From positions 1,024,001 to 1,088,000 of the forward strand of contig CAWDVR010000001.1 in the NCBI GenBank assembly GCA_963805975.1: a stretch of DNA of 64,000 nt, in the 5' to 3' direction. Each line of letters starts with the position of its first letter. Positions within the stretch are counted from its first letter, which is position 1. The notes beneath the pieces were generated by a model. That model saw nothing but the letters and a program-made list of their open reading frames with translations, was not told the DNA's origin and searched no databases. The translations under genes were made by a program, and so were the position numbers. Of this stretch, positions 2 to 41,626 are shown in pieces. Source of the DNA: an uncultured Acidobacteriota bacterium (GTDB taxonomy: Bacteria; Acidobacteriota; Thermoanaerobaculia; Multivoradales; SZUA-115).

Positions 2-17740
<17,739 letters not shown>

Positions 17741-18252
17741 GCCCAAGGGAGTGGCGATGTCCCGGGGAGCCCTGGCGGCCCACAGCGCCGACGCCGCCAG
17801 CGCCTTCCGCCTCGGCCCCGGCGACCGCGTGCTGCAGTTCGCGTCGCTGGCCTTCGACACCTCCACCGAGGAGATCTTTCCCACCCTGGGCCGGGGTGCC
17901 CGCCTGCTGCTGGCCGGCGAGCGCCCGGCCGAGGCCCCCGCGCTCTTCTTCGAGGAGTGCCGCCGCCGGGCGGTCACCGTCCTCGACCTGCCCACCGCCT
18001 ACTGGCACCAGTTGGTCGCCGCCTTGGACGAAGAGAGCACGGGGCTGCCGGCGGACGTGCGGCTGGTGATCCTGGGCGGCGAGGCGGCGCGGCCGGAAGC
18101 CCTGGCCGCCTGGCGGCGGCACGCGCCGCGAGAGCTGACCCTGGTCAACACTTACGGCCCCACCGAGACGACGGTGGTGGCGACCCGCTGGAGCCCGCTC
18201 CCATGGCTCGGGCCGGAAGGGACCGCCGACGCGGAGGAGACGCGAGAGCACG

Positions 18253-26100: not shown

Positions 26101-26895
26101 GCTGGACCGCGCGCTCCGCCCGGTGGCCGTCGGCGTGCCCGGGGCGCTCTTCAGCACCGGCCGCTGCGAGGCCCGGGGCTACCTCGCCGAGCCGGTGATG
26201 ACCGCCGAGAAGTACGTCCCCGACCCCTTCACCGGCACCTTCGGCGGCCGTCTCTACCGCACCGGCGACCTCGCCCGGCGCCTGCCCGGCGGCGAGATCG
26301 AGTTCCTGGGGCGGATCGACGACCAAGTGAAGATCCGCGGCTACCGCCTGGAGCTGGGCGAGGTGGACACGGTGCTGGCGCGGCACCCCAAGCTGCGCGA
26401 CGTGGCCTCGCTCGTGCGGCCCACCGACACCGGCAACCTCCTGGTTTCGTATCTGGTGCTCGAAGAGCCGATGGCCGACGTGACGGCCGAGCTCACCGCC
26501 TACATGAAGGCCCGGGTGCCGGAGCACATGGTGCCTTCGGCGTTCGTGGTGATGGACTGGCTGCCGGTCAACGCCAACGGCAAGCTGGACCGGGAGGCCC
26601 TGCCGGCGCCCGAGGTGGTCACCGGCCGGGCCAAGGCCGCCACCGCCACCCTACGCAACGCCACCGAGGAGCTGCTGGCCGAGCTCTGGCAGGAGGTCCT
26701 GGGCGGCGAGCGGCCCGGCCCCGAGGACGACTTCTTCGATCTCGGCGGGCACTCGATCCTGGCGACCCAGCTCATCTCGCGCGTGCGCCTGGCCTTCGAG
26801 GTCGAGCTGCCGCTGATGGCCCTGTTCGAGAGCCCCACCCTGGGAGGGCTGGCCGCGGTGCTCGAGGAGTCCAGGGAGCGACGAGCGGGCAGGGA
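23176..26895 (+). CDS. Giant NRPS, segment 4: end of A7, T, C-A8 (Pro/Pip-like, Asp235->Cys)-T
   Basis: LPAHMVP...SGKVDR, GGHSLLAT, HHIVSDG, YTSGTTGKPKG, FCVSFQEIF, NQYGASETHVV and GGHSILAT, within ORF 22967..27490. Confidence 0.9.
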
Positions 26896-27152
26896 GCGGT
26901 GCCCCCCCTGGTGGCCGGAGGATGGCCGCCGCCGGCGCCGCTCTCCTTCGCCCAGCAGCGGGTCTGGCTCCACGAGCAGACCCTGCCGGGGAGCTCGGTC
27001 TACAACCTGCCGCTCGCGGTGCGCCTCTCGGGCGAGCTCGCGGCGGTGGCCCTGGCGCGGGCGGCCGGCGAGGTGGTGCGCCGCCACGAGGCCCTGCGCA
27101 CCCGCTTCGAGGTCCACGGCGGCCTGCCGGTGCAGGTGGTGGAGCCGGCCGG
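26896..27152 (+). CDS. Giant NRPS, segment 5: N-terminus of C domain 9
   Basis: PLSFAQQRVWL...YNLP...RHEALRTRF reads in frame +1 between two frameshifts. Confidence 0.8.
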
Positions 27153-30100
27153 GGCCCGTTCCGGCTGCCGGTGGTGGACCTCCAGGGCCTTCCCGCGGCC
27201 GGGCGGGAAGCGAGGGCCCGGCGCCTGGCCGACCGCGCGGCCGCCCGGCCCTTCGATCTCGCCCGGGGGCCGCTCCACGCCTGGTGCCTGCTGCGGCTGG
27301 CACCCGTGGAGCACGCCTTGGTGATCAACCTCCACCACACCGTCTCCGACGGCTGGTCCACCGGCGTGCTGGCCGGCGAGATGGAGGCGCTCTACGCCGC
27401 CTTCCGGGCGGGCCAACCCTCCACGCTGCCGGCTCTCGCGGTCCAGTACGGCGACTACGCCGTCTGGCAGCGGCGCTGGCTCTCGGGTGAGGTGCTGGAG
27501 GGGCAGCTCGAGGCCTGGCGCGGGCTGCTGGCCGGCGCCCCGGCGGCCCTGCCCCTGCCCACCGACCGGCCGCGGCCCGCGCTGCGCTCCCAGCGGGGGA
27601 CCACGCGGCGGGCGGCCCTGCCGGCGGCCCTGGTGGAGGATCTCCGCGGCCTCGCGCGGAGCCAGGGAACGACCCTGTTCATGGCCCTGCTGGCCGGCTT
27701 CGACGCCTTGCTGGCCGCCTGGTCCGGGGCCCGGGACGTGGTGGTGGCCACCACCTACGCCAACCGGCGGGACCGGGCGCTGGAGCCGCTGATCGGCTTC
27801 TTCGTCAACCCCGTGCTGCTGCGCACCGATCTCTCCGGGCGCCCCAGCTTCGGCGAGCTCCTGGCGCGGGTGAGGCGCACCGTGCTCGCCGCCTCGGCGA
27901 ACCAGGACGTGCCCTACGAGAAGGTCACCGAGAGGCTGCGCGCCGCGGACCCCGAGTGGTGGTCGCCGCTGCCGCAGGTGATCTTCACGCTCCAGAACAC
28001 CCCCCTGCCGCGCCTGGCCCTGCCGGGATTGGAACTCTCGCCCCTGGGGGCCGACGACGGAACCACCAAGGCCGAGCTGGAGCTGGCCTTCTTCGACGGC
28101 GGTGACGGCGGCCTCGCCGGCAGCCTGACCTACGACCGGGAGCTCTTCGACGCCGCCACCATGGCCCGGTTCCTGGCCCACCTGGAGGTCCTGCTGGGGG
28201 CCGCGGCAGCCGCTCCCGAGACGGCGCTGGAGGCCCTGCCGCTGCTCCGTCCGGCCGAAGAGGCGCAGCTACGAATGGAGCACAACGACTCGGCCCGGAT
28301 CTGGCCGCGGGAGACCCCCGCCACCCTCCACGGCCTGGTGCTGTGGCGCGCCGAGGTGGCCCCCGAAGCGGTGGCGGTGGTCTACGAGGACGAGGTTCTG
28401 TCCTATGGTGAGCTCGCGCGCCGCGCACGGGCCCTGGCCGCGATCCTGGCCTGCCACGGTGCCGGTCCCGAGCGGCTGGTGGCGGTGGCCATGGAGCGCT
28501 CCCTGGAGCTGCCCGTGGCGCTGTTGGCCGTGCTCGTCGCGGGCGGCGCCTACGTCCCCCTGGACCCCTCGTACCCCGAGGAGCGGCTGCGCTTCATGCT
28601 GGCGGACAGCGGAGCGCCGGTCGTGCTGACCCAGGCCCGGCTCCTGCCCGCGCTGGAGTCCCTGGCGGCCGGCTCTGCCGCTCGCTGGCTGGCCGTGGAC
28701 GACCTGCCGGCCGGGGAACCCGCGGAGATCACGACGCCGCAGGAAGGCCCGACAGTGGAGCACCAGGACGGCCTGGCCTACGTCATCTACACCTCCGGCT
28801 CGACGGGCAGGCCCAAGGGTGCGATGAACCATCACCGCGGCATCGTCAACCGGCTGCAGTGGATGCAGGAGGCCTATGGTCTTGTGGCTTCGGACCGGGT
28901 GCTGCACAAGACCCCGGTGAGCTTCGACGTCTCGGTCTGGGAGCTGTTCTGGCCGCTCGTCGCCGGCGCCTGCATGGTGGTGGCCCGCCCCGGCGGTCAC
29001 CGCGAGCCCGCCTACCTGGCGGCGCTCCTGGCCGAGGAGCGGATCACCACGCTGCACTTCGTGCCGTCGATGCTCCAGGCCTTCCTGGGGGAGGAGGCGC
29101 CCGCGGCGACAGCGGTGCGCCGGGTGATCGCCAGCGGCGAGGCCCTGTCCTGGGAGCTGAAGGAGAGCTTCTACCGGCGCTTCGGCCCCTCCGCTGAACT
29201 GCCCGGGGCCGAGCTGCACAACCTCTACGGCCCCACCGAGGCCGCCATCGACGTCACGGCCTGGGCTTGCGCCCCCGGAGGCAGCCTCCGGCCGGTGCCC
29301 ATCGGCCGGCCGGTGGCCAACACCCGGGTCCACCTGCTCGGGCCTGGCGGCCGGCTGGCGCCGCTGGGCGTGCCCGGCGAGGCGGTCCTGGCCGGCCCGC
29401 AGCTCGCCCGCGGCTACTGGCGCCGGCCCGCCCTCACCGCCAGCACTTTCGTTCCGGACCCGCTGGCGAGCCGGCCGGGCGAGCGCCTCTACCGCACCGG
29501 CGACCTGGCCCGGCGCCTGCCCGGCGGCGAGGTCGAGTTCCTGGGCCGCCTCGACCACCAGGTCAAGGTGCGCGGCTTCCGCATCGAGCTGGGCGAGGTG
29601 GAGGGTGCGCTCGAGGCCCATCCCGGTGTGCGCCAGGCGGTGGCGGTGGTGTGGGAGGAGGCAGGTGAGATGGGGCGGCTGGTGGCCTACCTGGTGCCGG
29701 CCGCGGCCGGCGGCCCCGCGCCGGGGGCCGAGGAGCTGATCCCCTTCCTGGCGGAGCGCCTGCCGGAGCAGATGGTCCCCTCGGCCTTCGTCTCGCTGCC
29801 GGAGCTGCCCCTCTCGCCCTCCGGCAAGGTGGACCGGCGGCGGCTGCCGGCCCCGTCGGCCGAGGGCCTGCGGGGCGCCGGAGCCTTCGCGCCCCCGCGC
29901 TCGCCCCTCGAACGCGCCCTGGCCGCCGTCTGGCAGGAGGTGCTGGGCTTGGCCTCCTCGGAAGCTTCGTCCCTGGGCCTGGACGACAACTTCTTCGCCT
30001 TCGGCGGCGACTCCATCCGCATGCTCCAGGTGCGCCAGAAGGCGGCGGAGCGGGGCATCGGGCTCTCGGCCCAGGATCTCTTCTCCGCCCCCACGCTGCG

Positions 30101-33100
30101 CCAGCTCGCCCGCCTCGCCGATGCCGGCGGAGCGCTGGAGGACGACGACCTCGGCGGCCGTCCCTTCTCGCTCCTCGCCGCCGGGGACAAGCAGCGGCTG
30201 CCGCCGGGCATCGAGGACGCCTACCCGGTGACGGCGCTGCAAGCGGGGATGCTCTTCCATGGCGAGTGGAGCCGGGGCACGGCCACCTACCACGACGTGG
30301 AGACCCTGCGGTTGCGGGGCCGCCTGGTGCCCAGGCACCTCGCCGATGCCCTGGCGCAAGTCATCACGCGCCACCCGGTGCTGCGCACCTCCTTCGACCT
30401 CTCCTCCTTCGGCGAGCCTTTGCAGCTCGTCCACCGCGAAGTCGGCGTGCGCCTTCCCGTCCGCGACCTGGCCGGCCTGGACGAGAGCGCTGCCGAGGCC
30501 GCCGTGGCCGCCTGGATGGCGGGAGAGCGGCGGTCTCCCTTCGACTGGCGCCGGCCGCCCCTGCTGCGCGCCGTGCTGTTCGTCCGCGGCGAGGGTGACT
30601 GGGAGGTGGGCGTGGCCTTCCACCACGCCATCCTCGACGGCTGGTCCAACGCCACCCTGCTCTCCGAGTGGCTCCGGATCTACCTCTCCCTGCTGGAGGG
30701 GAGCGACGCGGAGCTGCCCCCGGTGCCGGAGGGGACGCAGCGGCGGTTCGTGGCCCTGGAGCGCCAGTCCGCTGCCGAGGGCGAAGACGAGGCCTTCTGG
30801 CAAAAGGAGCTGGCAGGGGCCCGCCCCACCCGTTTGGGCCGCTGGCCGGAGGAAGCGGGAGTGGAGCGCGGCGAGGGCGTGCGGGTGGTGCCGGTGCCCC
30901 TGGCCGCGGAGCTGGCCGAGGGCCTGGTGGAGCTCGGCCGGCGGGCCCAGGTGCCGCTCAAGACCGTGCTCCTGGCCGCCCACCTGCGGGCGCTGGCCCT
31001 CGCCAGCGGCAGCGCCGAGGTGGTCACCGGCGTGGTCTTCAACGGCCGACCCGAGACCCAGGGCGCGGACCGGGCGCTCGGGCTGTATCTCGCGACCCTG
31101 CCACTCCGCGTGCCGGTAGGCCGCGACAACGGCCTCGACCTCCTGGCGCGGACCTTCGACGCCGAGCGCCAGGCGCTGGCCCACGCGCGCTACCCGGTGG
31201 CGCGCCTCCCGGCCCTCCAGGGGAGCGAGCCGCTGGCGGAGGTGCTGTTCAACTTCAACCACTTCCACGTGCTCGAAGGGGTCCGCGACCTGCCCGGCGT
31301 GGAGCTGCTGGGCTGGCAGAGCTACCAGGAGACCAACTTCGCACTGACCGCGAGCTTCAACCAGGACGCCTTTGCCGGCCGGCTGACCCTCGACCTCCAC
31401 GCCGACGCCCGGCGGCTGGCCCCGGCCCAGCTCCGGCTGCTGGTGGGCTACTACGCCCAGGCGCTCGAGTCCCTGGTCCGGGACCCCGAGGCCGGCTGGC
31501 AGCCGATCTTCCTGCTCACGCCGGGCGAGCGGCATCGGTTGCTGGTAGAGGTAACAGGAGAAGGAAAGGCGCCGGCACCCGAGGAGACGGTGGTGGAGGC
31601 GCTGGCCCGGGTGGCCGAACGGCAGCCGGAGGCCCTGGCCCTCACCGTCGCCGGCCGTCCGGCCCTGACCTTCGCACAGCTCACCAGCAGAGTGCGGCGC
31701 CTCGCCCGTCGCCTGCGCGGGCTGGGGGTGGGGCCGGAGGTGCGCGTCGCCCTCTGTGCCGAGCCGTCGCCGGAGCTGGTGGTGGGCCTGCTGGCGGTGC
31801 TCGAGGCGGGCGGCGCCTACGTGCCCCTGGACCCCGGCGACCCCGCCGAGCGCCTGGCCTACGTGCTGGCCGACTCCGGCGCCCGCCTCCTCCTCACCCA
31901 GGAGCGCTGGCTGTCGCGGCTGGGCGCCGCGGCTGTCGAGGCGGTCCTCCTGGACGGCGTTGCCGAGGTCGAAAGCGGGCCGGAGGCGGACGACGGGCGT
32001 GAATCTCCGCTCGCGGCTCCGGCCCCCGGCCACCTGGCCTACGTCCTCTACACCTCCGGGTCGACGGGCCGGCCCAAGGGGGTGATGGTCGAGCACCGGA
32101 GCCTGATGGGGTACCTGCGCTGGGCGGGCGAGAGCCTGCTGGCCGGGGTGGATCACCTGCCGTGGACCACCCGCATCACCTTCGACGCCTCGCTCAAGCA
32201 GCTCTTTGGCCCGCTGCTGGCGGGGCGGGCGGTGCGCATCCCGGCCCCCGGCGCCCTCTCCGACCCGGCGGCCCTGGCCGCCGCCCTGGAGGTGCCGCCG
32301 GAGCTCGCCGGGCAAGGGGCCTTCAACGCCGTCCCCACCCTGTGGGGGGCTCTGCTGGACGCCATCGAGGCCGGGCAGGTGGCACCGCCTCGGGGGCTGG
32401 GGCTCCTGCTGCTGGGCGGCGAGGCCCTGCCCGGCCGCCTGGTGGAGCGCACCCGGAAGGCCCTGCCCGGCCTCGAGATCGTCAACCTCTACGGCCCCAC
32501 CGAGCTCACCTCCAACGCCAGCTTCGACCGCGTGGACAGCTCCGGCACCGTCACCCTGGGGCGCTCGGCCGCGGGGGCGCGGCTCCACGTCCTGGGCCCG
32601 GGTCTCGAGCCCCTGCCCGACGGCGTGGCCGGCGGTCTCTACGGAGCCGGCACCGGGGTGGCGCGCGGCTACCTGGGGCGCCCGGCGTGGACCGCGGAGC
32701 GTTTCCTCCCCGACCCCTTCTCCGGGGAGCCGGGGATTCGCCTCTACGCCACCGGCGACCGGGTGCGCCGCCGGCCCGACGGCCGCCTGGAGTTCCTGGG
32801 CCGGCTGGACGAGCAGGTGAAGATCCGCGGTCACCGCGTGGAGCTGGCCGAGGTGGAGTCGGCGCTGGCGGCGTTGCCGGACCTGGCCGAGGTGGCGGTG
32901 GCGGCCCGGCGCCTCGGCGGCGATGGAGATGGCCCGCTCTCTTTGGTGGCCTACTGCGTACCCCGTTCCGGGCGACTGCCCGCCGCCGGCGAGCTGCGCT
33001 CGGCCCTCGCGGCAGTCTTGCCCGAGGCCATGGTGCCGGCCCGCTTCGTGGAGCTGCCGGCCCTGCCGCGGCTCCCCAGCGGCAAGGTGGACCGCCGTGC

Positions 33101-34808
33101 CCTGCCCGCTCCAGGCGCCGGCGACGGCCTCGACGAGAGCGCCGGCGAGCCACCGCGGACGCCGCTCGAGCGCCTGCTGGCCGACCTCTGGGCCGCGGTG
33201 CTGCGCCGGCCGGTGGGGATCCACGACAACTTCTTCGACCTGGGGGGCGACTCGATCGTCAGCCTCCAGATCATCGTGCGCGCCCGCCAGGCGGGCCTGG
33301 CGCTCGAGCCGCGGCAGATCTTCGAGCAGCCCACGGTGGCGCGGCTCGCGGCCGTGGTGGGCGAGGCGCCGCCGGTGGCGGCCGAGCAGGGGCCGGTCTC
33401 CGGTCCGCTTTCTCTCACTCCCATCCAGCGGCGCTTCTTCGAGCTGGGCTTCGAGGAGGAGCACCACTGGAACCAATCCCTGCTGCTGGCGCTGCGCCGG
33501 CGGCTGGAGCCGGCCCGCCTGGGAGCCGCCCTCGAAGCGGTGGTGGAGCACCACGACGCGCTGCGCACGACCTTCCAGCGCCGCTCGGACGGTCGAGTGG
33601 AGGCCAGGATCGCCGAGCTTCCGGCACGGCTGCCGCTCTCGGTCTGCGACCTCACGGGCCTCCGTGCCGAGGGGGCTCGCGTTGCCCTGCCGGCGGTGGC
33701 GGCCCGGGTCCAGGCCAGTCTGGACCTCGCCCGTGGGCCTCTGACCCGGGCCTGCCTCTTCCGGCTGGCCGAGGGCGATCAGCTCCTGTGGGTGGCCCAC
33801 CACCTGGTGGTGGACGCGGTCTCCTGGCGCTTCCTGGTCGAGGACCTGGAGGCGGCGGTGAAGGCGCTCGAAGCTGGCGAGGCGGCCTCGCTGCCGCCCA
33901 AGACCACCTCGTTCCAATCCTGGAGCGATGCCCTGGAAAAGCACTCCCGCTCCGCGGCAGTGGTCGCCGAAGGAGATTTCTGGCGCCGGCAGGCCGGGCA
34001 TCCGGACGCGGACCTGCCCCTGGATCTGCCCGGCGACGCCGGCACGGTGGGGCAGGCCGCGAGCTTCACGGTGAGCCTGGGAGGGGACGCGAGCCGGGCC
34101 CTGCTGGACCGCCACGCCGGCGGCGAGAGGGGAGCCCCGGCCGGGTCCAGGGTGGAGGAGGCCCTGCTGGCGGCCTTGATGTCGGCGGCCTCCGGCTGGT
34201 GGGGGTCGACCGCCCTGCGGGTGGAGCTCGAAGGGCATGGCCGCGAGCCCATCTCGGGGGAGGTGGACGTCGCCCGCACCGCCGGCTGGTTCACCACCGT
34301 CTTCCCGCTGCTCCTGGAGGGTTCGCCGGGAGAGTCGGTGGCCGAGACGCTGGCGGCCGTGCGCCGCCGGCTGCGCGCGCTGCCGGGGCGGGGGCTGGGC
34401 TACGGGTTGCTGCGCTACCTGGCCGGCGGCGACGACCTGGCCGCCGCTCCCGGCGTGAGCTTCAACTACCTCGGCCGGGTGGACCTGGCGCTGCCCGAGG
34501 GCGAGATTTTCGCGCTGCTGGGGACGGGCACGGGCGGCGACCGCAGCCCGCGGGGGAAGCGCCATCACCCGCTCGAAGTGGTGGCCCTGGTGGCCGGCGG
34601 GCGCCTCCAGGCGACCTGGACCTACAGCCCCGAGCTCCACCTGGCCTCGACCGTGGAGGGCTTGGCGGAGAGCTTCCTGGCGGCGCTGGGCGAGCTGGCG
34701 GCGGTGCCGGCGCGGGAGGACGGGCCGGGCGGCGAGGCACTGAGCGGCGACGCTCTGGGCGAGCTGCTGGCCGAGCTCAACGACGGCTCCCGGCGAGGAG
34801 GGCGCTAA
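27153..34808 (+). CDS. Giant NRPS, segment 6: C-A(Ser)-T, CmodAA-A(Glu-like)-T-E
   Basis: HHTVSDG; FDVSVWELFW/HFVPS/NLYGPTEAAID; GGDSI; EDAYP...LRTSFDL...EPLQLVH...HHAILDG; E-domain motifs HHLVVDAVSW, EGHGRE, RTAGWFTT, PGRGLGYG and FNYLG; TAA at 34806-34808. Confidence 0.93.
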   Translation, partial: GPFRLPVVDLQGLPAAGREARARRLADRAAARPFDLARGPLHAWCLLRLAPVEHALVINLHHTVSDGWSTGVLAGEMEALYAAFRAGQPSTLPALAVQYGDYAVWQRRWLSGEVLEGQLEAWRGLLAGAPAALPLPTDRPRPALRSQRGTTRRAALPAALVEDLRGLARSQGTTLFMALLAGFDALLAAWSGARDVVVATTYANRRDRALEPLIGFFVNPVLLRTDLSGRPSFGELLARVRRTVLAASANQDVPYEKVTERLRAADPEWWSPLPQVIFTLQNTPLPRLALPGLELSPLGADDGTTKAELELAFFDGGDGGLAGSLTYDRELFDAATMARFLAHLEVLLGAAAAAPETALEALPLLRPAEEAQLRMEHNDSARIWPRETPATLHGLVLWRAEVAPEAVAVVYEDEVLSYGELARRARALAAILACHGAGPERLVAVAMERSLELPVALLAVLVAGGAYVPLDPSYPEERLRFMLADSGAPVVLTQARLLPALESLAAGSAARWLAVDDLPAGEPAEITTPQEGPTVEHQDGLAYVIYTSGSTGRPKGAMNHHRGIVNRLQWMQEAYGLVASDRVLHKTPVSFDVSVWELFWPLVAGACMVVARPGGHREPAYLAALLAEERITTLHFVPSMLQAFLGEEAPAATAVRRVIASGEALSWELKESFYRRFGPSAELPGAELHNLYGPTEAAIDVTAWACAPGGSLRPVPIGRPVANTRVHLLGPGGRLAPLGVPGEAVLAGPQLARGYWRRPALTASTFVPDPLASRPGERLYRTGDLARRLPGGEVEFLGRLDHQVKVRGFRIELGEVEGALEAHPGVRQAVAVVWEEAGEMGRLVAYLVPAAAGGPAPGAEELIPFLAERLPEQMVPSAFVSLPELPLSPSGKVDRRRLPAPSAEGLRGAGAFAPPRSPLERALAAVWQEVLGLASSEASSLGLDDNFFAFGGDSIRMLQVRQKAAERGIGLSAQDLFSAPTLRQLARLADAGGALEDDDLGGRPFSLLAAGDKQRLPPGIEDAYPVTALQAGMLFHGEWSRGTATYHDVETLRLRGRLVPRHLADALAQVITRHPVLRTSFDLSSFGEPLQLVHREVGVRLPVRDLAGLDESAAEAAVAAWMAGERRSPFDWRRPPLLRAVLFVRGEGDWEVGVAFHHAILDGWSNATLLSEWLRIYLSLLEGSDAELPPVPEGTQRRFVALERQSAAEGEDEAFWQKELAGARPTRLGRWPEEAGVERGEGVRVVPVPLAAELAEGLVELGRRAQVPLKTVLLAAHLRALALASGSAEVVTGVVFNGRPETQGADRALGLYLATLPLRVPVGRDNGLDLLARTFDAERQALAHARYPVARLPALQGSEPLAEVLFNFNHFHVLEGVRDLPGVELLGWQSYQETNFALTASFNQDAFAGRLTLDLHADARRLAPAQLRLLVGYYAQALESLVRDPEAGWQPIFLLTPGERHRLLVEVTGEGKAPAPEETVVEALARVAERQPEALALTVAGRPALTFAQLTSRVRRLARRLRGLGVGPEVRVALCAEPSPELVVGLLAVLEAGGAYVPLDPGDPAERLAYVLADSGARLLLTQERWLSRLGAAAVEAVLLDGVAEVESGPEADDGRESPLAAPAPGHLAYVLYTSGSTGRPKGVMVEHRSLMGYLRWAGESLLAGVDHLPWTTRITFDASLKQLFGPLLAGRAVRIPAPGALSDPAALAAALEVPPELAGQGAFNAVPTLWGALLDAIEAGQVAPPRGLGLLLLGGEALPGRLVERTRKALPGLEIVNLYGPTELTSNASFDRVDSSGTVTLGRSAAGARLHVLGPGLEPLPDGVAGGLYGAGTGVARGYLGRPAWTAERFLPDPFSGEPGIRLYATGDRVRRRPDGRLEFLGRLDEQVKIRGHRVELAEVESALAALPDLAEVAVAARRLGGDGDGPLSLVAYCVPRSGRLPAAGELRSALAAVLPEAMVPARFVELPALPRLPSGKVDRRALPAPGAGDGLDESAGEPPRTPLERLLADLWAAVLRRPVGIHDNFFDLGGDSIVSLQIIVRARQAGLALEPRQIFEQPTVARLAAVVGEAPPVAAEQGPVSGPLSLTPIQRRFFELGFEEEHHWNQSLLLALRRRLEPARLGAALEAVVEHHDALRTTFQRRSDGRVEARIAELPARLPLSVCDLTGLRAEGARVALPAVAARVQASLDLARGPLTRACLFRLAEGDQLLWVAHHLVVDAVSWRFLVEDLEAAVKALEAGEAASLPPKTTSFQSWSDALEKHSRSAAVVAEGDFWRRQAGHPDADLPLDLPGDAGTVGQAASFTVSLGGDASRALLDRHAGGERGAPAGSRVEEALLAALMSAASGWWGSTALRVELEGHGREPISGEVDVARTAGWFTTVFPLLLEGSPGESVAETLAAVRRRLRALPGRGLGYGLLRYLAGGDDLAAAPGVSFNYLGRVDLALPEGEIFALLGTGTGGDRSPRGKRHHPLEVVALVAGGRLQATWTYSPELHLASTVEGLAESFLAALGELAAVPAREDGPGGEALSGDALGELLAELNDGSRRGGR

Positions 34809-34810
34809 CC

Positions 34811-37800
34811 GTGCTGCAAGAGAGCGACGTCGAGGCCCTGCACCCCCTGTCCCCCCAGCAGCAGGGGATGCTCTTCGAGTGGCTGCGGGCGCCGGAGTCC
34901 GGGGTCCACGTCGAGCAGTCCCTGTTCACGCTGGACGATGGAAGCGGCCAGGGAGGTCTGGACCTCGCCGCTTTCCAGGAGGCCTGGGGGCGGCTGGCCG
35001 AGCGTCACGCCATCCTGCGCACCGCGTTCGTCTGGGAGAACCGCCGGGAGCCGCTGCAGGTGGTGCTCCGCCGGGCGGAGATCCCCATCGCGGTCGAGGA
35101 CTGGCGGGAACGGCCGGTGGAGGCAGCGCTCGCAGCTTTTCTCGAGGCCGATGCCCGCCAGGGCCTGCCGCTGCACCGGGCGCCGCTCATGCGCCTGGCC
35201 CTGTTCCGCTGTGGCAGCGGCCGGAGCCTCCTGGTGTGGACCTCCCACCACATCCTCCTCGACGGCTGGAGCCGCAGCCGGATCTTCGGCGAGCTGCTGC
35301 CGCTCTACGGTGCCCTGGCCCGGGGAGAGGCGCCGCCGGTGCTGCCTCCGGTGCGCCCCTACGGCGACTACGTCTCGTGGCTGGGAGAGCAGGACACGGC
35401 CGCGGCGGCCGGCTTCTGGCGCCGCCAGCTCGCCGGCCTCGCCGGCCCCAGCGGACTGCCACTGGAGGAGGGCCGCGCGGCTTCGGTCGCGGGAGAGCGG
35501 TACGGGTCCCTGAAGCTGGGTCTCGGTGCCGAGGCGACACGGGGCCTGGAGGAGCTCGCCCGGCGGCGGCGGGTGACGCTGAGCACGGTGGTCCAGGGGG
35601 CCCTGGGCCTGCTCCTCGCCCGCTACGGCGGCCGTGAGGACGTCCTCCTCGGCATCACGGTCTCCGGCCGCCCCGGCGGCCTGCAAGGCGTGGAGGAGAT
35701 GGTGGGGCCCTTCCTCAACACCTTGCCGCTGCGGCTGGCGGTGCCCGAGGGTGGTGCCTTCGACGCCTGGCTCGGTCGAGTCCAGGCCGCCGCCCTGGCG
35801 CTGGCCTCGTACCAGCACTGCTCCGAGGGCCAGGTCCACGCCTGGAGCGGCCTGCCGCCGTCGGCGCCTTTGTACGAGGCGGTGCTGGTGTTCGAGAACT
35901 ACCCCCTGCTGGAGGACGGCTCGGCAGTAGGGGAGCTGGGCTTCCGCATCTCCGGCCTGGAGCAGCGGGGGGCCCGCACCAAGTACCTGCTCACTTTCCT
36001 GGTGTTCGCGGAGCAGGAGCTCTCCTTCGAGCTGGTCTACGACGGCCGGCGCCTGGGGCCCGAAGGCGCCCGGCGGGTCGCCGATCAGCTCGCCGGCCTC
36101 CTGCGCACCGTGGCCCAGGGGCCCGGCACCGATCTCGGGGCGCTGCGCGCGGCGATCGCCGACGAGGAGCTGCCGCGCTGCCGGCCGGCGACGGCCGGTG
36201 AGGTGGACTCGACGCCGCCCCGCACCGCCGTCGAGCGGCTGCTGGCGCCGGTCTGGGCTCGGGTCCTGGGTGTCGAGGGGCTGGGAGTCCACGCCAGCTT
36301 CCTCGAGCTCGGCGGGCACTCGCTCCTGGCGCTGGAGCTGGCGGGCGAGAGCCGCCGCGCCCTGGGCTGCGAGGTGCCTCTGCGCCTGCTCTTCACCGAT
36401 CCCAGCGTCGCCGGCGTGGCGGCGGCCGTGCTGGAGGCCGAGGCAGGCCAGGCCCCGGAGACGGTGGCGCGGATCATGGGGCCGGGAGAGCCGACAGCTC
36501 CACTGACCGGGCTGGCCCCCGAGACCCAGGACCGGCTGTGGGAGGCGCTGGTCGCCGCCCGCTCCGGGCAGGCCGAGCCGCCGCCGGCCCCGCCGCACAT
36601 CGAGCCCCGCCCGGGCGAGCGCCACGAGCCCTTCCCCCTGACCGGCATCCAGACGCTCTACTGGCAGGCCCGGGGCGGGCTGGCGCCGACCGACACCCAC
36701 GGCAACAACCTGGTGGTGGAGTTCGAGATCCCGGGTGCCGGCGAGGGGTTGGTGGCGGCGCTGGAAGCGGCGCTGGGGCACCTGGTCGAGCGCCACGCCA
36801 TGCTGCGCGCGGTCTTCTCTCCCGACGGCACGCAGCGGGTGCTGCCGGAGGTGCCCCGACCCTCGATTCGGCGCCTCGATCTGCGGTCGCTTGCCGCGGG
36901 GGAAGCGGAGGCCCGGGTGGCGGCCCTGCGCTTCGAGCTGCGCCACCGCCGGGCCGCTCCCGACCGCTGGCCCCTCTTCGAGGTGATCGCCCACCTGCTG
37001 CCCGGGGAGCGCCTGCGCCTCCAGTTGCGCATGGAGGCCCTGCTGCTGGACGGCGACAGCCGGGAGCGCCTGTTCCAGGAGCTCCTGGCCCTGGTCCGCC
37101 GTCCCGACCTCGCCCTGCCTCCCCTGGGGGTGACCTTCCGGGACTATGCCGTGGGCTGGCGCCGGCTCGCCGCCCAGCACGGAGACTTCCGCCGCTCCCG
37201 CCAATACTGGCTCGGCCGGCTGCCGCACCTTCCGGCCCCCGCGACGCTGCCCACCCGCGGCGGCGGCCCGCCTTGGCCCCGGCGCTTCGCCCTGGAGAAG
37301 GAGACCGCCCGCTTGCTTCCGGCCGGGGAGTGGGCGGCGGTCAAGACACGAGCGGGGGAGCGGGGCCTGACACCCTCGGCGGTGGTGGCCGGCGCCTTCG
37401 CCGCGGTTTTGGGCCATGCGATCTGGGGCCACGCGGCGCGAGACGAACCTGGCGGCGGGCGCAGCTTCACGCTGCCGGTGGTGGGCAACTTCCGCCCTCC
37501 CTTCCACCCCGACCTCGAAGGCGTGGTGGGCAACTTCGACACCCTCTACCCGGTGGCGGTCCGCGACGCCGCGGCACCGCTGGTGGAGATCGCCCGGCAG
37601 CTCCAGGAGGAGCTGATGGCGGCCTTGGAGCACCCTTACTTCTTCGGCCCCGAGGCCCTGCTCCAGCTCGCCCGGCGCCACCCCGGCACCGGGGCCACTC
37701 CGGCGGTGGTCTTCAACAGCCTGGTGGAGTTCAACCACCCCCAGCACCGGCAGCGGCTGCTGGCGGCCAAGGGCGAAGCTCCGTTGGGCGAGCAGATCGA

Positions 37801-38020
37801 CCTCAGCATCAACATCCCGCAGGTGATCTTCAACGGCACGATCGCCGAGACCCTGGACGGCGACCTCATCGCCCTTTGGCAGTGGATGGACGAGGCCCTC
37901 GCCCCTGGAGTGGCGGCGGAGGTGCGGGACGGGTACCGCCGGCTCCTCGTCTGCCTGGCGCGGGCGCCCGAGCCGTGGGACCTGCCGTTCGAGGAGGCAG
38001 TCCTCCCCTCATCGCCCTGA
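34811..38020 (+). CDS. Terminal NRPS protein: C (DCL-like)-T-degenerate heterocyclization (Cy) domain, no A and no TE
   Basis: GTG at 34811 after GAGGAG. PLSPQQQGMLF, HHILLDGWS, FLELGGHSL, and Cy-like FPLTxxQ, RHAMLRAVFxxDGTQ, WPLF, TFRDY and PQV motifs. Confidence 0.88.
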   Translation: MLQESDVEALHPLSPQQQGMLFEWLRAPESGVHVEQSLFTLDDGSGQGGLDLAAFQEAWGRLAERHAILRTAFVWENRREPLQVVLRRAEIPIAVEDWRERPVEAALAAFLEADARQGLPLHRAPLMRLALFRCGSGRSLLVWTSHHILLDGWSRSRIFGELLPLYGALARGEAPPVLPPVRPYGDYVSWLGEQDTAAAAGFWRRQLAGLAGPSGLPLEEGRAASVAGERYGSLKLGLGAEATRGLEELARRRRVTLSTVVQGALGLLLARYGGREDVLLGITVSGRPGGLQGVEEMVGPFLNTLPLRLAVPEGGAFDAWLGRVQAAALALASYQHCSEGQVHAWSGLPPSAPLYEAVLVFENYPLLEDGSAVGELGFRISGLEQRGARTKYLLTFLVFAEQELSFELVYDGRRLGPEGARRVADQLAGLLRTVAQGPGTDLGALRAAIADEELPRCRPATAGEVDSTPPRTAVERLLAPVWARVLGVEGLGVHASFLELGGHSLLALELAGESRRALGCEVPLRLLFTDPSVAGVAAAVLEAEAGQAPETVARIMGPGEPTAPLTGLAPETQDRLWEALVAARSGQAEPPPAPPHIEPRPGERHEPFPLTGIQTLYWQARGGLAPTDTHGNNLVVEFEIPGAGEGLVAALEAALGHLVERHAMLRAVFSPDGTQRVLPEVPRPSIRRLDLRSLAAGEAEARVAALRFELRHRRAAPDRWPLFEVIAHLLPGERLRLQLRMEALLLDGDSRERLFQELLALVRRPDLALPPLGVTFRDYAVGWRRLAAQHGDFRRSRQYWLGRLPHLPAPATLPTRGGGPPWPRRFALEKETARLLPAGEWAAVKTRAGERGLTPSAVVAGAFAAVLGHAIWGHAARDEPGGGRSFTLPVVGNFRPPFHPDLEGVVGNFDTLYPVAVRDAAAPLVEIARQLQEELMAALEHPYFFGPEALLQLARRHPGTGATPAVVFNSLVEFNHPQHRQRLLAAKGEAPLGEQIDLSINIPQVIFNGTIAETLDGDLIALWQWMDEALAPGVAAEVRDGYRRLLVCLARAPEPWDLPFEEAVLPSSP

Positions 38021-38037
38021 CCGCGAAGGAGCTTGCC

Positions 38038-39741
38038 ATCGCCCCCCTCCTCCACCTCTTGCGCTTCCTGCTCCGCTTCACGCGCCACGTGCACTTCTCC
38101 CGGCTGGGAGTGGGGCTGGTGCTGGCCGCCGGCCTGGTGGCCGGCGCCGCCAACATCCTGCTGCTGGCGATCATCAACTCCGCCCTGGGCTCCCTGGGCT
38201 CGCCCAGCCGCTTCCTGGTCACGGCCTTCGCCGCGTTGTGCGTGCTGATGCCGGTCACCTGGTTCGCCTCCCAGTACCTGATCTTCGCCCTCAACCAGCA
38301 GGTGCTCTCGGACCTGCGCATGCACCTCGCGAAACGCATCCTGGCCACCCCGCTGCGCCGGCTGGAGGAGGTGGGGCCGGGGCGGCTGCTGGCCACTCTC
38401 ACCGAGGACGTGGGGGCGATCTCCCAGGCCCTCCTGGACATTCCGCTGCTGTGCCTGAACGGCGCCATCGTGCTGGGTTGCCTGGCCTACTTCGCCTACC
38501 TCTCCTGGCCGGTGCTGCTGGGCTTCGTGGTGGTGATGGCCCTGGGGCTCGCCAGCTACCAGCTTCCGCTCGCCCGGGCCACCAGGCACTTCTCCGAGGG
38601 CCGTCGCCACTTCGACCAGATGGTGGGGCACCTGCGGTCGCTGACCGATGGCACCAAGGAGCTCAAGGTCCACCGGCCCCGGCGGCAGGCCTTCGTCTCA
38701 GAGCACCTGGAGGCCAGCGTCCAGGGCTACCGCCGCGCCAGCGTGCGGGGCGGCAAGATCTTCGCCGCCGCCACCGGCTGGGGGAGGGGAGTCTTCTTCG
38801 TGGTGATCGGCCTGGTGCTCTTCGTCCTGCCCCAGCAGACCACTCTCGACCGCACGGCGATCACCGGCTACGTCCTGGGGCTCCTCTACCTGATGAACCC
38901 CATCGACATCGTGCTGCGGGTGATGCCGGAGCTCAGCCGGGCCGCGGTCGCCATCCGGCAAGTGGAAAACCTGGGGCTCTCCTTGGCCGAGGAGGAGCCG
39001 GCGGGACCCGAGCCGGCGCCGGAGCGGCCGGGTGCGGCCTCAGTCGGCGAGTGGCGCCGCCTGGAGCTGGACGGAGTGCACTACTCCTACCCCGGGGAGG
39101 AAGGTCACACCTTCGCGCTGGGGCCCCTGGACCTCGTGCTCACCCCCGGGGAGCTGGTCTTCGTGGCCGGCGGCAATGGCAGCGGCAAGACCACTCTGGC
39201 CAAGCTCTTGACCGGCCTCTATGAGCCGGATGCGGGAGAGGTCCGCCTCGACGGAACCGCCGTCACCGCCGCCAACCGGGAGGCCTTCCGGCAGCATTTC
39301 TCGGTGGTCTTCTCCGACTTCCACCTCTTCCCGAGCCTGCCGGGGCTCTGGGCGCCGGACCTGGAAAAGGCGGCGGGGGAGTACCTGGCCACGCTGCAGC
39401 TCGCTCACAAGGTCCAGGTCAAGGACGGCGCGCTGACCACGGTGGATCTCTCTCAAGGGCAGCGCAAGCGGCTGGCACTGCTCACCGCCTACCTAGAAGA
39501 TCGGCCCATCTACCTGTTCGACGAGTGGGCCGCCGACCAGGACCCCTACTTCAAGGAGGTCTTCTACCGGCAGCTCCTGCCGGGTCTCAAGAAGCGGGGC
39601 AAGACGGTGGTGGTGATCAGCCACGACGACCGCTACTACGACCAGGCCGACCGCCTGGTCAAGCTGGAGAACGGGCGCTTCGTGGAGCCCCAGGCGCCGG
39701 CGGCATCCGCCAGCGCCTCGACCTCCCGCACCAGCGCGTAG
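38038..39741 (+). CDS. Cyclic peptide export ABC transporter (SyrD/PvdE/YojI family)
   Basis: About six TM segments, DGTKELK, Walker A GGNGSGKT, VFSDFHLF, LSQGQRKRL and FDEWAADQDP. Start uncertain: ATC at 38038 after AAGGAG, or TTG at 38059. Confidence 0.92.
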   Translation: MAPLLHLLRFLLRFTRHVHFSRLGVGLVLAAGLVAGAANILLLAIINSALGSLGSPSRFLVTAFAALCVLMPVTWFASQYLIFALNQQVLSDLRMHLAKRILATPLRRLEEVGPGRLLATLTEDVGAISQALLDIPLLCLNGAIVLGCLAYFAYLSWPVLLGFVVVMALGLASYQLPLARATRHFSEGRRHFDQMVGHLRSLTDGTKELKVHRPRRQAFVSEHLEASVQGYRRASVRGGKIFAAATGWGRGVFFVVIGLVLFVLPQQTTLDRTAITGYVLGLLYLMNPIDIVLRVMPELSRAAVAIRQVENLGLSLAEEEPAGPEPAPERPGAASVGEWRRLELDGVHYSYPGEEGHTFALGPLDLVLTPGELVFVAGGNGSGKTTLAKLLTGLYEPDAGEVRLDGTAVTAANREAFRQHFSVVFSDFHLFPSLPGLWAPDLEKAAGEYLATLQLAHKVQVKDGALTTVDLSQGQRKRLALLTAYLEDRPIYLFDEWAADQDPYFKEVFYRQLLPGLKKRGKTVVVISHDDRYYDQADRLVKLENGRFVEPQAPAASASASTSRTSA

Positions 39742-40754
39742 GGGTCCCAGGCGTCGTGAGAGACGCTCTCGAGCGGCAGCTCGGTGCCCAGGCCGAGGTG
39801 GTGGGCGTGCGCGAGGAGCACCTCCATCGCCACCTGGTCCTCGAGGGCGAAGCCGGTGGAGTCGAAGATCGTGGTCTCGCCGCGCAGATGGGCGAAGCGC
39901 TCCGGCGTCTTGACCAGCTCGTCCAGGCTCGCCCCCACCTCCTCGGGCGCCAACTGCTGGCACTCCCCCTCGCGCAGGGCCTGCTCGCGGAAGTCAGCGC
40001 ACACCCAGGCCCGGCGGACCAGCCCGGCCGGCAGCTCGGTCTTGCCGGGGAAGTCGGAGCCCACGGCGTTGATATGCACCCAGGGGCGGAGCGCGTCGCC
40101 GTCGAGGACCGCCCCCTCGCCCGGGGCCACCGAGGTGGCGGTGCACAGCAGGTCGGCGGCGGCCTCCACCTCGCGGCGGGGAGCGGGCCGCACCGGCACG
40201 CCGAACGCGGCGGTGCGCTGGGCGAAGGAGCGCTCCACCCGCGGATCGGCGTCGTGGATCAGCACCTCTCGCAGGTCGAAGCAGCGGCTCAGGGCGTGGA
40301 GCTGGGTCACCGCCTGCATACCGCAGCCCACCAGGCCCAGGACGCGGCTGTCGGGGCGAGCCAGCAGGCGGCTCGCCACCGCCGACGCGGCGCCGGTGCG
40401 CACCGCCGTGGCCAGGCCCCCGTCGGCCACCGCCAGCAGGTGGCCGTTGGCCACGTCGTAGAGGGAGAGGGTCGCCAGCACCGTGGGGATCCCCTGGCCG
40501 GGGTTGTGGGGGTGGTAGGCCACGGTCTTGATGAGCACGTTACGCCCCACGGTGAGGAGCGGCATCCACTCCACCAGGCCGGGCCGGGGAGAGTCGTAGT
40601 CGAAGCCGTCCCGCACCGGGATGCGAGTCGTGGCCGGATCGAAGGCGCGCAGGCTGGCCTCGAGCCCGGCGATCACCTCGTCCATCAGCGAGTCGAGGCC
40701 CACCGTGGCGGCCAGGCGGGCGACGTCGTCGCGGCCGAGGAAGAGGGTCTTCAA
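39636..40754 (-). CDS. Lysine/ornithine cyclodeaminase (RapL/PipA/TubZ-like; pipecolate or proline forming)
   Basis: TTG start overlaps the upstream TGA, with a GGAGG RBS. VEWMP, KTVAYHPHNP, RTGAASAVA, GCGMQA, HINAVGSD and FDSTGFALED motifs. Confidence 0.9.
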   Translation of the reverse strand: MKTLFLGRDDVARLAATVGLDSLMDEVIAGLEASLRAFDPATTRIPVRDGFDYDSPRPGLVEWMPLLTVGRNVLIKTVAYHPHNPGQGIPTVLATLSLYDVANGHLLAVADGGLATAVRTGAASAVASRLLARPDSRVLGLVGCGMQAVTQLHALSRCFDLREVLIHDADPRVERSFAQRTAAFGVPVRPAPRREVEAAADLLCTATSVAPGEGAVLDGDALRPWVHINAVGSDFPGKTELPAGLVRRAWVCADFREQALREGECQQLAPEEVGASLDELVKTPERFAHLRGETTIFDSTGFALEDQVAMEVLLAHAHHLGLGTELPLESVSHDAWDPYALVREVEALADAAGAWGSTKRPFSSLTRRSAWS

Positions 40755-41626
40755 ACCGCCACCTCCTCGGACCTCCGGGTGGGGAACTCGAAGCGCTCGC
40801 CCAGCGCACGCTCCTCGATGCAGAAGCGCTTGAAGGCGACCGCCTTCTCCGCGAGCCGGGGGTCCTCCGCACGGCGGGCCAGCTCCACCAGCCAGTCGAA
40901 GACGTCGGCCGCGTGCGCCTGGCGGTAGAAATGGATCTTGCCCAGGAGGCCGACCAGGTCGCGGAAATTCTCCTGGGTCAGGAGCTTGCCCAGGGCGAAG
41001 AGGATCTGCCGGTCCTCCTGGGTCAGGGGCTCGCGCTCGACGAGGTGCGGCGAGAGCTCCCCGGAGTTCCGGTACGGGGGCCGGACCCACTCTTCGAGCG
41101 GGCGCCCGTCGTCCGAGAAATCGAGGCACAGGGAGATACGCCGGAAGTCGAAGAGGCTGCACGCCGAGTGGACCGTCCGGGCGTCGAGGAACCAGACCTC
41201 CCCCTCCCGCATGTGGAAGACCAGATCCTCCTCGGAGTGCAGGCAGCTCGGGTCCGTGGCCAGAGGCACGTTGAGGCGCACGAACGGCTCCTCGAACTCG
41301 ACGAAGTCCCGGTGCGAGATCAGCAGGCCGTTGTGGACCAGGAAGATGCGCTCCCATTTCAGGCGATCGGTATCGAAGGTCTCTGCGATGGCCTGGCCCA
41401 GGTAGGGCAGCTCGCGCCCGAGGGCAGTTTTCTGCGGCCGTCCCTCGTAGCCCCGGAACGAGGTGTCTGCCGCGTCGCCGCCGGCGTTGGCCAGCACGTA
41501 GGAGCGCCAGGTTCCGAAGGTGTATTCGGAGTACTGATCTTTGACCTGGAAATCGAGGATCCTGGCCAGCTCGGGGGCGAGCCGAGACGAGTCGAGCCGG
41601 AGCCTGCCGAGAATTTGTGACTTCAT
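40751..41626 (-). CDS. Fe(II)/2-oxoglutarate L-proline/L-pipecolate hydroxylase (proline 3-hydroxylase/GetF-like)
   Basis: MKSQILGRLRLDSSRLAPEL, HRDFVE (HxD), FHMREGEVWFLDARTVHSA, RISLCLDF and a helical C-terminal domain resemble Streptomyces proline 3-hydroxylase. Confidence 0.87.
   Translation of the reverse strand: MKSQILGRLRLDSSRLAPELARILDFQVKDQYSEYTFGTWRSYVLANAGGDAADTSFRGYEGRPQKTALGRELPYLGQAIAETFDTDRLKWERIFLVHNGLLISHRDFVEFEEPFVRLNVPLATDPSCLHSEEDLVFHMREGEVWFLDARTVHSACSLFDFRRISLCLDFSDDGRPLEEWVRPPYRNSGELSPHLVEREPLTQEDRQILFALGKLLTQENFRDLVGLLGKIHFYRQAHAADVFDWLVELARRAEDPRLAEKAVAFKRFCIEERALGERFEFPTRRSEEVAV

Follow-up and report, generated by a model that had tools for sequence, protein, structure and literature searches.

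The window, a stretch of 64,000 nucleotides from an uncultured Acidobacteriota bacterium (contig CAWDVR010000001.1, positions 1,024,001 to 1,088,000 of the forward strand), carries an assembly line of non-ribosomal peptide synthetase (NRPS) type whose last gene ends in a domain of heterocyclization (Cy) type and not in a thioesterase (TE) or reductase (R) domain. Our results show that this domain, which we call Cy*, belongs to a conserved Cy-derived clade that has lost the Thr/Asp dyad and gained residues of its own, including an invariant Arg. Judged from its sequence and position, Cy* is likely the release domain of TE-less lines and probably catalyses release of the chain in one way or another. 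More tentatively, we propose that it frees the chain by ring closure through a dehydro residue predicted one residue earlier.

The terminal domain and its clade

The terminal gene starts at a GTG codon (34811) preceded by GAGGAGG, 2 bases past the stop of the upstream gene, and encodes a condensation (C) domain of DCL type, a thiolation (T) domain and Cy*, with no adenylation (A) domain:

34811..38020, + strand: terminal NRPS gene, DCL-T-Cy, 1069 aa, without A domain
34811..36160, + strand: DCL-type C domain, A-less adaptor subtype; HHILLDG intact at 35246, HCSEGQVH signature at 35816
36242..36430, + strand: T domain; LGGHS serine intact (36308-36322), no A domain between C and T
36512..36550, + strand: linker LAPETQDRLWEAL, resembling by eye the N-terminal leader of stand-alone Cy* proteins
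36593..38020, + strand: Cy*, Cy-derived, C-terminal (PDB matches, tree, fold search, residue counts); E148/D153 at 37034/37049, R157 at 37061, N314 at 37532, N375 (dyad Thr site) at 37715, N414 (dyad Asp site) at 37832, TGA at 38018-38020

A Pfam scan of the 1069-aa protein placed C at residues 13-445, T at 480-542 and, weakly, another C-family stretch after them, and gave no A, TE or reductase domain; the best PDB match of the DCL domain was McyB (2e-91). The motifs that an earlier note on this DNA had quoted were all found in the + frame as stated, starting at 36620 (RHEPFPLT), 36791 (RHAMLRAVF), 36824 (DGTQ), 36968 (WPLF), 37034 (EALLLDGDS), 37133 (TFRDY), 37703 (AVVFNS) and 37820 (QVIFN), and the order that it gave (T, a full Cy-fold domain, stop, exporter) was confirmed by Pfam, PDB and position checks. 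The linker LAPETQDRLWEAL is a possible scar of a fusion between a DCL-T and a Cy* gene, because of its likeness by eye to the Cy* leader and because another genome (G407) encodes DCL-T and Cy* as two genes.

Sequence matches in the PDB to the last 475 residues (from 36593) were Cy domains in 8 of 8 cases, with EpoB at 1.5e-50 and BmdB at 1.8e-35. A fold search with an AlphaFold model of Cy* (mean pLDDT 77.7, built on 8 sequences) retrieved Cy structures alone among the matches listed to rank 18 (TM 0.73-0.78). Together with the nested place of the domain in a tree of Cy domains, described below, these matches support its assignment to the Cy clade, as had been proposed.

Since the assembly carries frameshifts upstream, the stop codon was checked separately. 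In a related strain (run X1, about 94% identical) one contig over 35888-38695 retains the TGA, with an in-frame 21-base insertion immediately 5′ of it, and two independent homologues, P0004 and the one in genome G409, terminate at the same place. This rules out a frameshift artefact as the origin of the stop. Comparison of the window with X1 over 37442-38017 (the last 192 codons, codons 284-475) yielded 19 synonymous and 7 non-synonymous codons, and hence a pN/pS of about 0.13 (binomial p 7e-7), an estimate from a single pair of strains that extends over no more than the final 40% of the Cy* domain. The last 192 codons of Cy* are under purifying selection. This value and the residues conserved throughout the clade contradict the label 'degenerate' that the domain had been given.

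On a quick IQ-TREE tree of 80 rows, 18 Cy* rows form a single branch (SH-aLRT 100) nested among Cy domains and adjoining a three-row group that holds two Cy-A-T-TE proteins, P0047 and P0231. A wider Cy* set was collected by requiring 445 bits or more against the profile, together with a latch or Thr motif that departs from the canonical one, and one canonical row was taken out by hand. It holds 47 sequences, or 39 at 85% identity, with a median pairwise identity of 41%, and was compared with 121 canonical Cy domains (every fourth of 482). The dyad Thr site reads Asn in 33, Asp in 4 and Thr in 2 of the 39 Cy* domains, against Thr in 113/121 canonical ones, and the dyad Asp site reads Leu in 19, Met in 6, Asp in 1 and Asn in 1, against Asp in 115/121; both counts are partly circular, because the set was picked by its latch or Thr motif. 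Of the Asn/Asn signature proposed for the window, the Thr to Asn half therefore stands as a property of the clade (33/39), while Asn at the dyad Asp site does not (1/39, mostly Leu). The other residue counts are circular solely through the profile score. The helper Gln is absent from all 39 Cy* domains and present in 105/121 canonical ones, whereas R157 is found in 39/39 against 3/121, N39 in 33/39 against 1/121, N314 in 32/39 against 5/121 and Q430 in 31/39 against 1/121. D153, the second Asp of DxxxxD, is retained in every domain of both sets (39/39 and 121/121). The first Asp is retained in 29 of the 39 Cy* domains and replaced by Glu in 8 of them (2/121 canonical); the window reads ExxxxD.

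The replaced Thr and Asp are, as had been recognised, the dyad that acts in Cy cyclodehydration in the available parts of PMC9547227 and PMC8807600. The window protein has N375, N414 and T416 at the Thr, Asp and helper-Gln sites, so that the canonical cyclodehydration set is absent, and it carries every clade-specific residue named (R157, N39, N314, N375, Q430). In the AlphaFold model R157 sits in the first turn of the helix following DxxxxD, which section 6 of PMC9547227, as far as its text was available, places at the reaction centre. Indeed, the clade-specific conserved residues concentrate in active-site motifs. An Arg after DGxS is present in the terminal gene's own DCL domain too.

Such substitutions could also mark the decaying relic of a Cy-A(Cys)-T-TE module. 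Two Cy-A-T-TE proteins, P0047 and P0231, stand in the sister group, relatives show a visibly decaying A domain after Cy*, and the upstream assembly has frameshifts. However, the domain shows a pN/pS of about 0.13 and is full-length in 39 members, which share invariant residues at a median identity of 41%; furthermore, where the A domain decays or vanishes, Cy* persists. Random decay was looked for in the homologues and not seen, the substitutions being clade signatures. The relic reading is largely refuted, and we hold it to be hardly credible.

When 300 genomes from the same order were searched, 11 of them held a total of 16 places at 530 bits or more, with 485 bits for the next best. This profile search scored 4-5 candidates per genome and missed the Cy* of G409, so that misses are not absences; the same applies to a class sample, with a Cy match in 24/401 genomes and Cy* in 2 of the 30 loci read, and to a phylum sample of 401 genomes, in which the domain's own genome alone was found. 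A search of 1.84 billion proteins added about a dozen new Cy* proteins in its best 150 matches, a list crowded by multi-Cy proteins. The source labels of the named relatives are Thermoanaerobaculia or Acidobacteriota, from which the window's organism would likely be placed there too. A DNA pattern scan of genome contigs gave at least 119 loci from 36 of 64 parts, none of which matched the Cy query at E 1e-15, and was uninformative; the ESM Atlas returned generic condensation clusters alone, and the best matches in a plasmid search had 36-38% identity.

Position of Cy* in its assembly lines

No TE or reductase follows Cy*, as had been stated: the genome (G000, 96% complete) has 7 TE matches and 15 to reductase families, all of them outside the window cluster, and a stand-alone A or A-T gene was seen neither in the cluster nor nearby. 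A type II TE is present on another contig. A TE-bearing continuation of the line was looked for and none exists; the nearest TE, 27 kb downstream, ends a separate convergent frame that has its own first C domain, and a hand-over to that NRPS is ruled out. Beyond the window, G000:C1:1088363-1131040 (- strand) is one 14,226-codon frame of NRPS-polyketide synthase type with three modAA domains and a KS-AT-T-TE end, adjoined by patatin-like, ArsA-like and radical-SAM-like open reading frames (ORFs; by eye). The genome has 76 condensation-family matches in 5.36 Mb and five NRPS regions, three others of which end in TE and one in a reductase.

The lines of the relatives were mapped with profiles built from sequences of this analysis, and the starts of most of them were not seen. 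In each of the 15 other genome-level places, Cy* stands after the last T of the line or at a contig edge, and in none does it precede a further working module. The 18 mapped lines have no TE or R domain on the same strand (L055 has an A-TE on the opposite strand nearby), and they are long, with up to at least 16 C domains; compact lines of three modules occur as well, as in L055 or G309. Cy* occurs in three forms: (a) a stand-alone Cy*-T protein, with or without a dead A domain between the two and often fused to an exporter of the major facilitator superfamily (MFS), directly after a TE-less NRPS; (b) the same arrangement joined to the NRPS end; and (c) DCL-T-Cy*-stop, found in the window, P0004 and G409. 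Two more proteins of the C-T-Cy-stop kind pointed out in the window were thus found. P0004 (49% identity in the Cy part) is a protein alone, without genomic context. The G409 twin (43% identity overall) stands after modAA-A-T-epimerization (E) and before the same exporter (58%), an ATP-binding cassette (ABC) transporter.

The A domain after Cy* has no P-loop in 26/26 tails, is often partly or wholly deleted, and is Cys-type where recognisable. On the other hand, 23 of 26 proteins retain the Ser of the T behind it (two stop at Cy* and one is cut), as do 20/20 locus rows. Of 21 loci whose downstream DNA could be read, 20 have an exporter (MFS or cyclic-peptide ABC) that is either fused or at most 2 genes away; the exception is G309, whose Cy* has no adjoining exporter. 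Fusion of Cy*-dead A-T to a Mef(A)-like MFS in one polypeptide was seen in L040, L046, L055, L038, L266, L270, L277 and L280, and in P0006 and P0346. A VioC/KMO-like FAD monooxygenase gene lies 3′ of the MFS in four Cy* loci (L046:13686, L040:14508, L274:11634, L282:4373). In L267 and L303, A domains at or beside the last module carry inserts, which we take to be FkbM-like methyltransferases; inserts of similar size occur in L280 and L277.

We propose release by Cy* because the line needs a release step and because Cy* is the sole conserved fold of catalytic type at its end. Two rivals bear on this. In the first, Cy* would be a non-catalytic dock or gate holding the loaded T near the exporter, with release spontaneous (a dehydroalanine (Dha)-Xaa thioester cyclising by itself) or performed in trans by the type II TE or an M28 peptidase. 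The loss of the dyad fits a dock, as do the MFS fusions of many relatives and the closeness of the exporter in 20/21 loci, and the X domain is a known inactive C-fold recruiter in the available passages of PMC10510592. For release in trans one may also point to the type II TE on another contig, to the opposite-strand A-TE of L055 and to an M28 peptidase that flanks both the window and G409 clusters (48% identity) and is single-copy in G000. Against a dock, the new invariant residues sit in active-site motifs, the window Cy* is not exporter-fused, the exporter family differs (ABC against MFS), G309 has no adjoining exporter, and the M28 gene is beside 2 loci among all those fetched. We consider a mere dock quite unlikely.

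In the second, Cy* would be a condensing or transferring enzyme that moves the chain to an A-less T, either onto bare pantetheine or onto an amino acid that is loaded there in trans, as in TlnC or WS9326A, with release coming later. The Ser kept by the T after Cy* and the retention of D153 speak for it; trans-loaded A-less modules are known (PMC10510592, section 5.4.2 as available), and a Cy domain with Asn for Thr, that of TlnC, acts on a Cys-loaded downstream T in the accessible text of 10.1101/2024.12.18.629141. But in the window protein, in P0004 and in that of G409 Cy* comes last and no T follows, the cluster and its surroundings hold no stand-alone A-T gene, and the line would still be left without a release step. 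Transfer is, in our view, improbable as the function of the clade.

A predicted dehydrating module before Cy* and a proposed release step

The window line starts at a fatty acyl-AMP ligase (FAAL)-T pair at C1:1018388, about 5.7 kb 5′ of the window, and has 11 elongating C domains, then E, then the terminal gene. Its other features in the window are:

2..28343, + strand: upstream NRPS modules, one with an N-methyltransferase; several assembly frameshifts
28344..30116, + strand: module 10, A-T, with code DVWHISLIDK, which we take to be Ser-type
30213..34808, + strand: module 11, modAA-type C (30213-31544), A, T and E (33408-34712); last A-containing module
38038..39741, + strand: cyclic-peptide export ABC transporter (TIGR01194, 493 bits, above cut-off)
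39636..40754, - strand: ornithine/lysine cyclodeaminase-family gene (profile search)
40751..41626, - strand: proline/pipecolate hydroxylase-like gene (PF05373; TIGR04531 under cut-off)

The module-11 C domain is closest to McyA-C2 (1e-101) and AmbE-CmodAA (2e-71), the next match being at 2e-40, and follows the Ser-type A. By sequence it is a modAA domain after a Ser module, for which dehydration is predicted. The same arrangement recurs in the relatives: the last elongating C is of modAA type in 17/18 lines (in P0359 it is LCL), against 6/90 non-last positions. On our assumed reading of the A-domain codes, the A before modAA is Ser-type in 11 lines and Thr-type in 4; in G409 it is neither, and in one more line it is not visible, which makes 15/16 visible cases Ser- or Thr-type. 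The last A, in contrast, varies (Ser-, Thr-, Pro-like and others), and the last modules include three with an N-methyltransferase-type insert and one of Pro-type (4/17). As the last A varies and 4/17 last residues are N-methylated or Pro-type, neither a side chain nor an amide N-H can be the common nucleophile. For the same reasons an imidazolinone of MIO/GFP type or an oxazoline of the last residue was rejected as a family-wide mechanism. A benzoxazole from hydroxyanthranilate was rejected too, a KMO-like gene being near 4 loci alone and not in the window.

What nearly all substrates would have in common is a predicted Dha or dehydrobutyrine (Dhb) one residue from the thioester, and this is why we propose, with some hesitation, that release is driven by the dehydro residue. 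In the window, FAAL-T would begin an acyl chain that 11 modules extend; module 10 would load Ser, and the module-11 modAA domain would dehydrate it to Dha; residue 11 would be joined and then epimerised. The A-less DCL-T would hand on the D-configured chain, probably through its own pantetheine, with Dha kept at position -2. Cy* would then bind the T and promote attack on the terminal thioester by the Dha enamide carbon (less likely the amide N). The chain would thereby come free with a six-membered ring at its C-terminus, and the adjoining exporter would take the product out. There are precedents for the parts of this scheme. In the available passages of PMC10880069 and 10.64898/2026.07.17.738954, pyrrolizidine NRPSs release the chain by closing a ring through TE-catalysed C-C bond formation from a dehydroamino acid enamide after a modAA module; those of 10.1101/2020.12.07.415471 propose for the CaeA2 Cy a C-C bond in which the dehydro residue C-beta attacks the thioester; and the TlnC Cy, with the same Thr to Asn change, off-loads its chain (10.1101/2024.12.18.629141, in the portion available). 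In its boldest form, Cy* would represent a new class of termination enzyme: a former azoline-making domain turned C-C-forming release cyclase, capping very large peptides and hybrids with a pyridinone-type ring from Dha/Dhb-Xaa, exporter-fused in many lineages and served by a DCL-T relay if the last residue is D. This version we regard as on the unlikely side.

Several observations weigh against dehydro-driven release. The T with intact Ser after Cy* in most relatives is not needed by it. No replacement general base is evident in Cy*, and R157 may be structural, because the gene's own DCL domain shares the Arg after DGxS. An FAD monooxygenase of pyrrolizidine type is not in the window cluster, none having been seen among the window or upstream ORFs examined, and the VioC/KMO-like genes lie near 4 other loci. 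On a FastTree tree the Cy*-linked modAA domains cluster (3 changes against 9.4 when shuffled), so that modAA and Cy* were probably inherited as one unit, and their pairing may not reflect a chemical need; the 18 lines, being kin, are not independent, and a Fisher p for the pairing overstates its significance. The last module of P0359 is LCL with a Gly-type A, and G409, the nearest twin in architecture, has before its modAA an A that is neither Ser- nor Thr-type. Finally, loading of DCL-T in trans would shift the register.

If the modAA link is mere hitch-hiking, Cy* could release the chain as a terminal C domain does, by macrolactamisation, macrolactonisation, hydrolysis or capture of a free amine. 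The terminal position speaks for this as much as for dehydro closure; the window's exporter belongs to the cyclic-peptide ABC family, modAA and Cy* seem to have been inherited together, and the codes of modules 1 and 7 are presumably Lys/Orn-like. Macrocyclising terminal C domains are known, at least in the available part of PMC10510592. Yet this reading gives no reason why modAA is last in 17/18 lines while upstream modules, line length and last-A specificity vary; 59 neighbouring ORFs (14 loci, 13 of them with Cy*) contain no common amine-supplying gene, and Cy* has no HHxxxD or SHxxxD histidine. We judge it unlikely. The earlier note had suggested repurposing for chain release by macrocyclisation or amine capture: the terminating role is supported by position, and the two chemistries are not the best supported ones, as the modAA link favours release through the dehydro residue.

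The earlier note had passed over the modAA-type C, as it had the A-less DCL-T on a separate gene and the clade signature behind the substitutions. A profile of A-less DCL-T found 19 places in 17/300 genomes, 14 of which were mapped. It follows an E domain in 14/14. What comes next is a canonical Cy in 10 cases (7 of them with an A domain seen behind the Cy), Cy* in 3 (the window, G409 and G407) and an LCL in the remaining one. Since 10/14 mapped copies precede a canonical Cy, A-less DCL-T reads as a general adaptor after E, for D-configured chains, and is not peculiar to Cy*. As the predicted dehydro residue stays at -2 in relatives, a relay of the chain by DCL-T seems more likely here than the trans loading known for other A-less modules. 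The E-DCL-T-canonical Cy loci (L305-L320) are in G397:C94, G601:C3:453660, G333:C44, G542:C28, G527:C200, G483, G205, G585, G550 and G494; C-T-TE forms also exist (P0388, P0392). An A-less C-T module expected in the argyrin line found no confirmation in the text available.

As for the neighbouring genes, the ABC ORF begins about 18 bases past the TGA, with AAGGAG at 38026. Its start is likely the rare codon ATC, six bases past AAGGAG (window 38026-38040), because the related strain retains ATC. The cyclodeaminase-family gene likely supplies pipecolate or proline. The Pro/Pip-like A domain of module 9 (about 26150-26200) has Cys for the usual FDxS Asp (GFCVSFQE) and YGASE for YGPTE; the cyclodeaminase and Pro/Pip hydroxylase genes stand downstream of the exporter. 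Frameshifts in NRPS domains (window about 17650, 18250, 23600 and 27490; G000:C1 about 1019200) are probably assembly errors, and the ORFs upstream may together encode just one or two proteins of very large size. The M28 peptidase gene of the window's cluster (G000:C1:1016345-1017184; L001:12345-13184, - strand) appears frameshifted near its start; that of the G409 cluster is at L303:1462-2499. Further upstream (L001 about 3400-8000), desaturase-like, cyclopropane-synthase-like and PaaI-like genes lie in a run (by eye).

Comparison with known systems

A search of the open literature, which does not take in subscription journals, found no description of the Cy* clade, of Cy-dead A-T-MFS fusions or of an E-DCL-T-Cy adaptor. 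Annotation would take lines ended by Cy* for incomplete ones or wrongly predict that they make thiazolines; the mapped DNA of some exceeds 60 kb, and their lineage is rich in NRPSs and little studied. The signature DGxSR, GNF[N/D/T], VxFNS and no latch Asp is a handle for mining, and it predicts a common C-terminal chemotype. The T-Cy* part of the window protein, with no dead A or membrane part, would make a small soluble test protein. If the release-cyclase reading is true, the NRPS-MFS fusions would couple release and export in one membrane-anchored protein. The A-less DCL-T adaptor that stands between E and Cy is of interest for the way in which Cy modules receive D-configured chains.

Cy* resembles the canonical Cy domains (EpoB, BmdB-Cy2, HMWP2-Cy1/2, PchE, FmoA3) in fold and sequence (TM 0.73-0.78, 25-35% identity), in the second Asp of DxxxxD, in the latch PQ and in its nested place in the tree. 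It differs from them in that the Thr/Asp dyad and the helper Gln are lost, GDFT has become GNF(N/D), a conserved Arg and Asp are lost and Arg157 is gained, no working Cys/Ser/Thr A domain follows, and the position is terminal. Protein ends in a Cy domain are also known from BlmIV-type lines, where the terminal Cy hands over to a separate A-T protein; such a partner is absent here, and the terminal Cy of P0008 (BlmIV by source label) keeps FTS and the dyad Asp, unlike Cy*.

Three repurposed or dehydro-residue systems can also be compared. The TlnC Cy of thiolactomycin, as described in the available part of 10.1101/2024.12.18.629141, is likewise a repurposed Cy with Asn at the dyad Thr and an off-loading role, but it retains and needs the dyad Asp (D394) and uses Cys-loaded TlnD, whereas Cy* has neither the Asp nor a working Cys partner. 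The pyrrolizidine and azabicyclene NRPSs (AzeB and kin) have a Ser/Thr module followed by a modAA C in the last module, and dehydro-residue closure as release is an analogy that we propose with them. AzeB-type lines, however, are bimodular, with a terminal type I TE, Pro or azetidine-2-carboxylate (AZC) as last residue and a Baeyer-Villiger monooxygenase, whereas the window line has 11 modules, no TE and a last A that is not Pro-type, and the last residue of Cy* lines varies. CaeA2 and ColA2 (caerulomycin, collismycin), in the passages available, have a Cy fold proposed to link a dehydro C-beta to a thioester; theirs is an elongation step between molecules, in which a flavoprotein takes part and the Cys A domain is active, and not a release step.

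Lastly, the terminal CT domains (fungal TqaA; HtmB2-CT) are, like Cy*, C-fold domains in the place of the TE, last in a TE-less line. They belong, however, to another clade with a His-containing motif, where Cy* reads EALLLD; TqaA was not among the Cy* matches listed, and HtmB2-CT matched at 1e-14 against 1e-100 for EpoB. Cy* descends from Cy domains and is likely a release domain, yet its residues and setting are the defining ones of neither canonical Cy nor CT.

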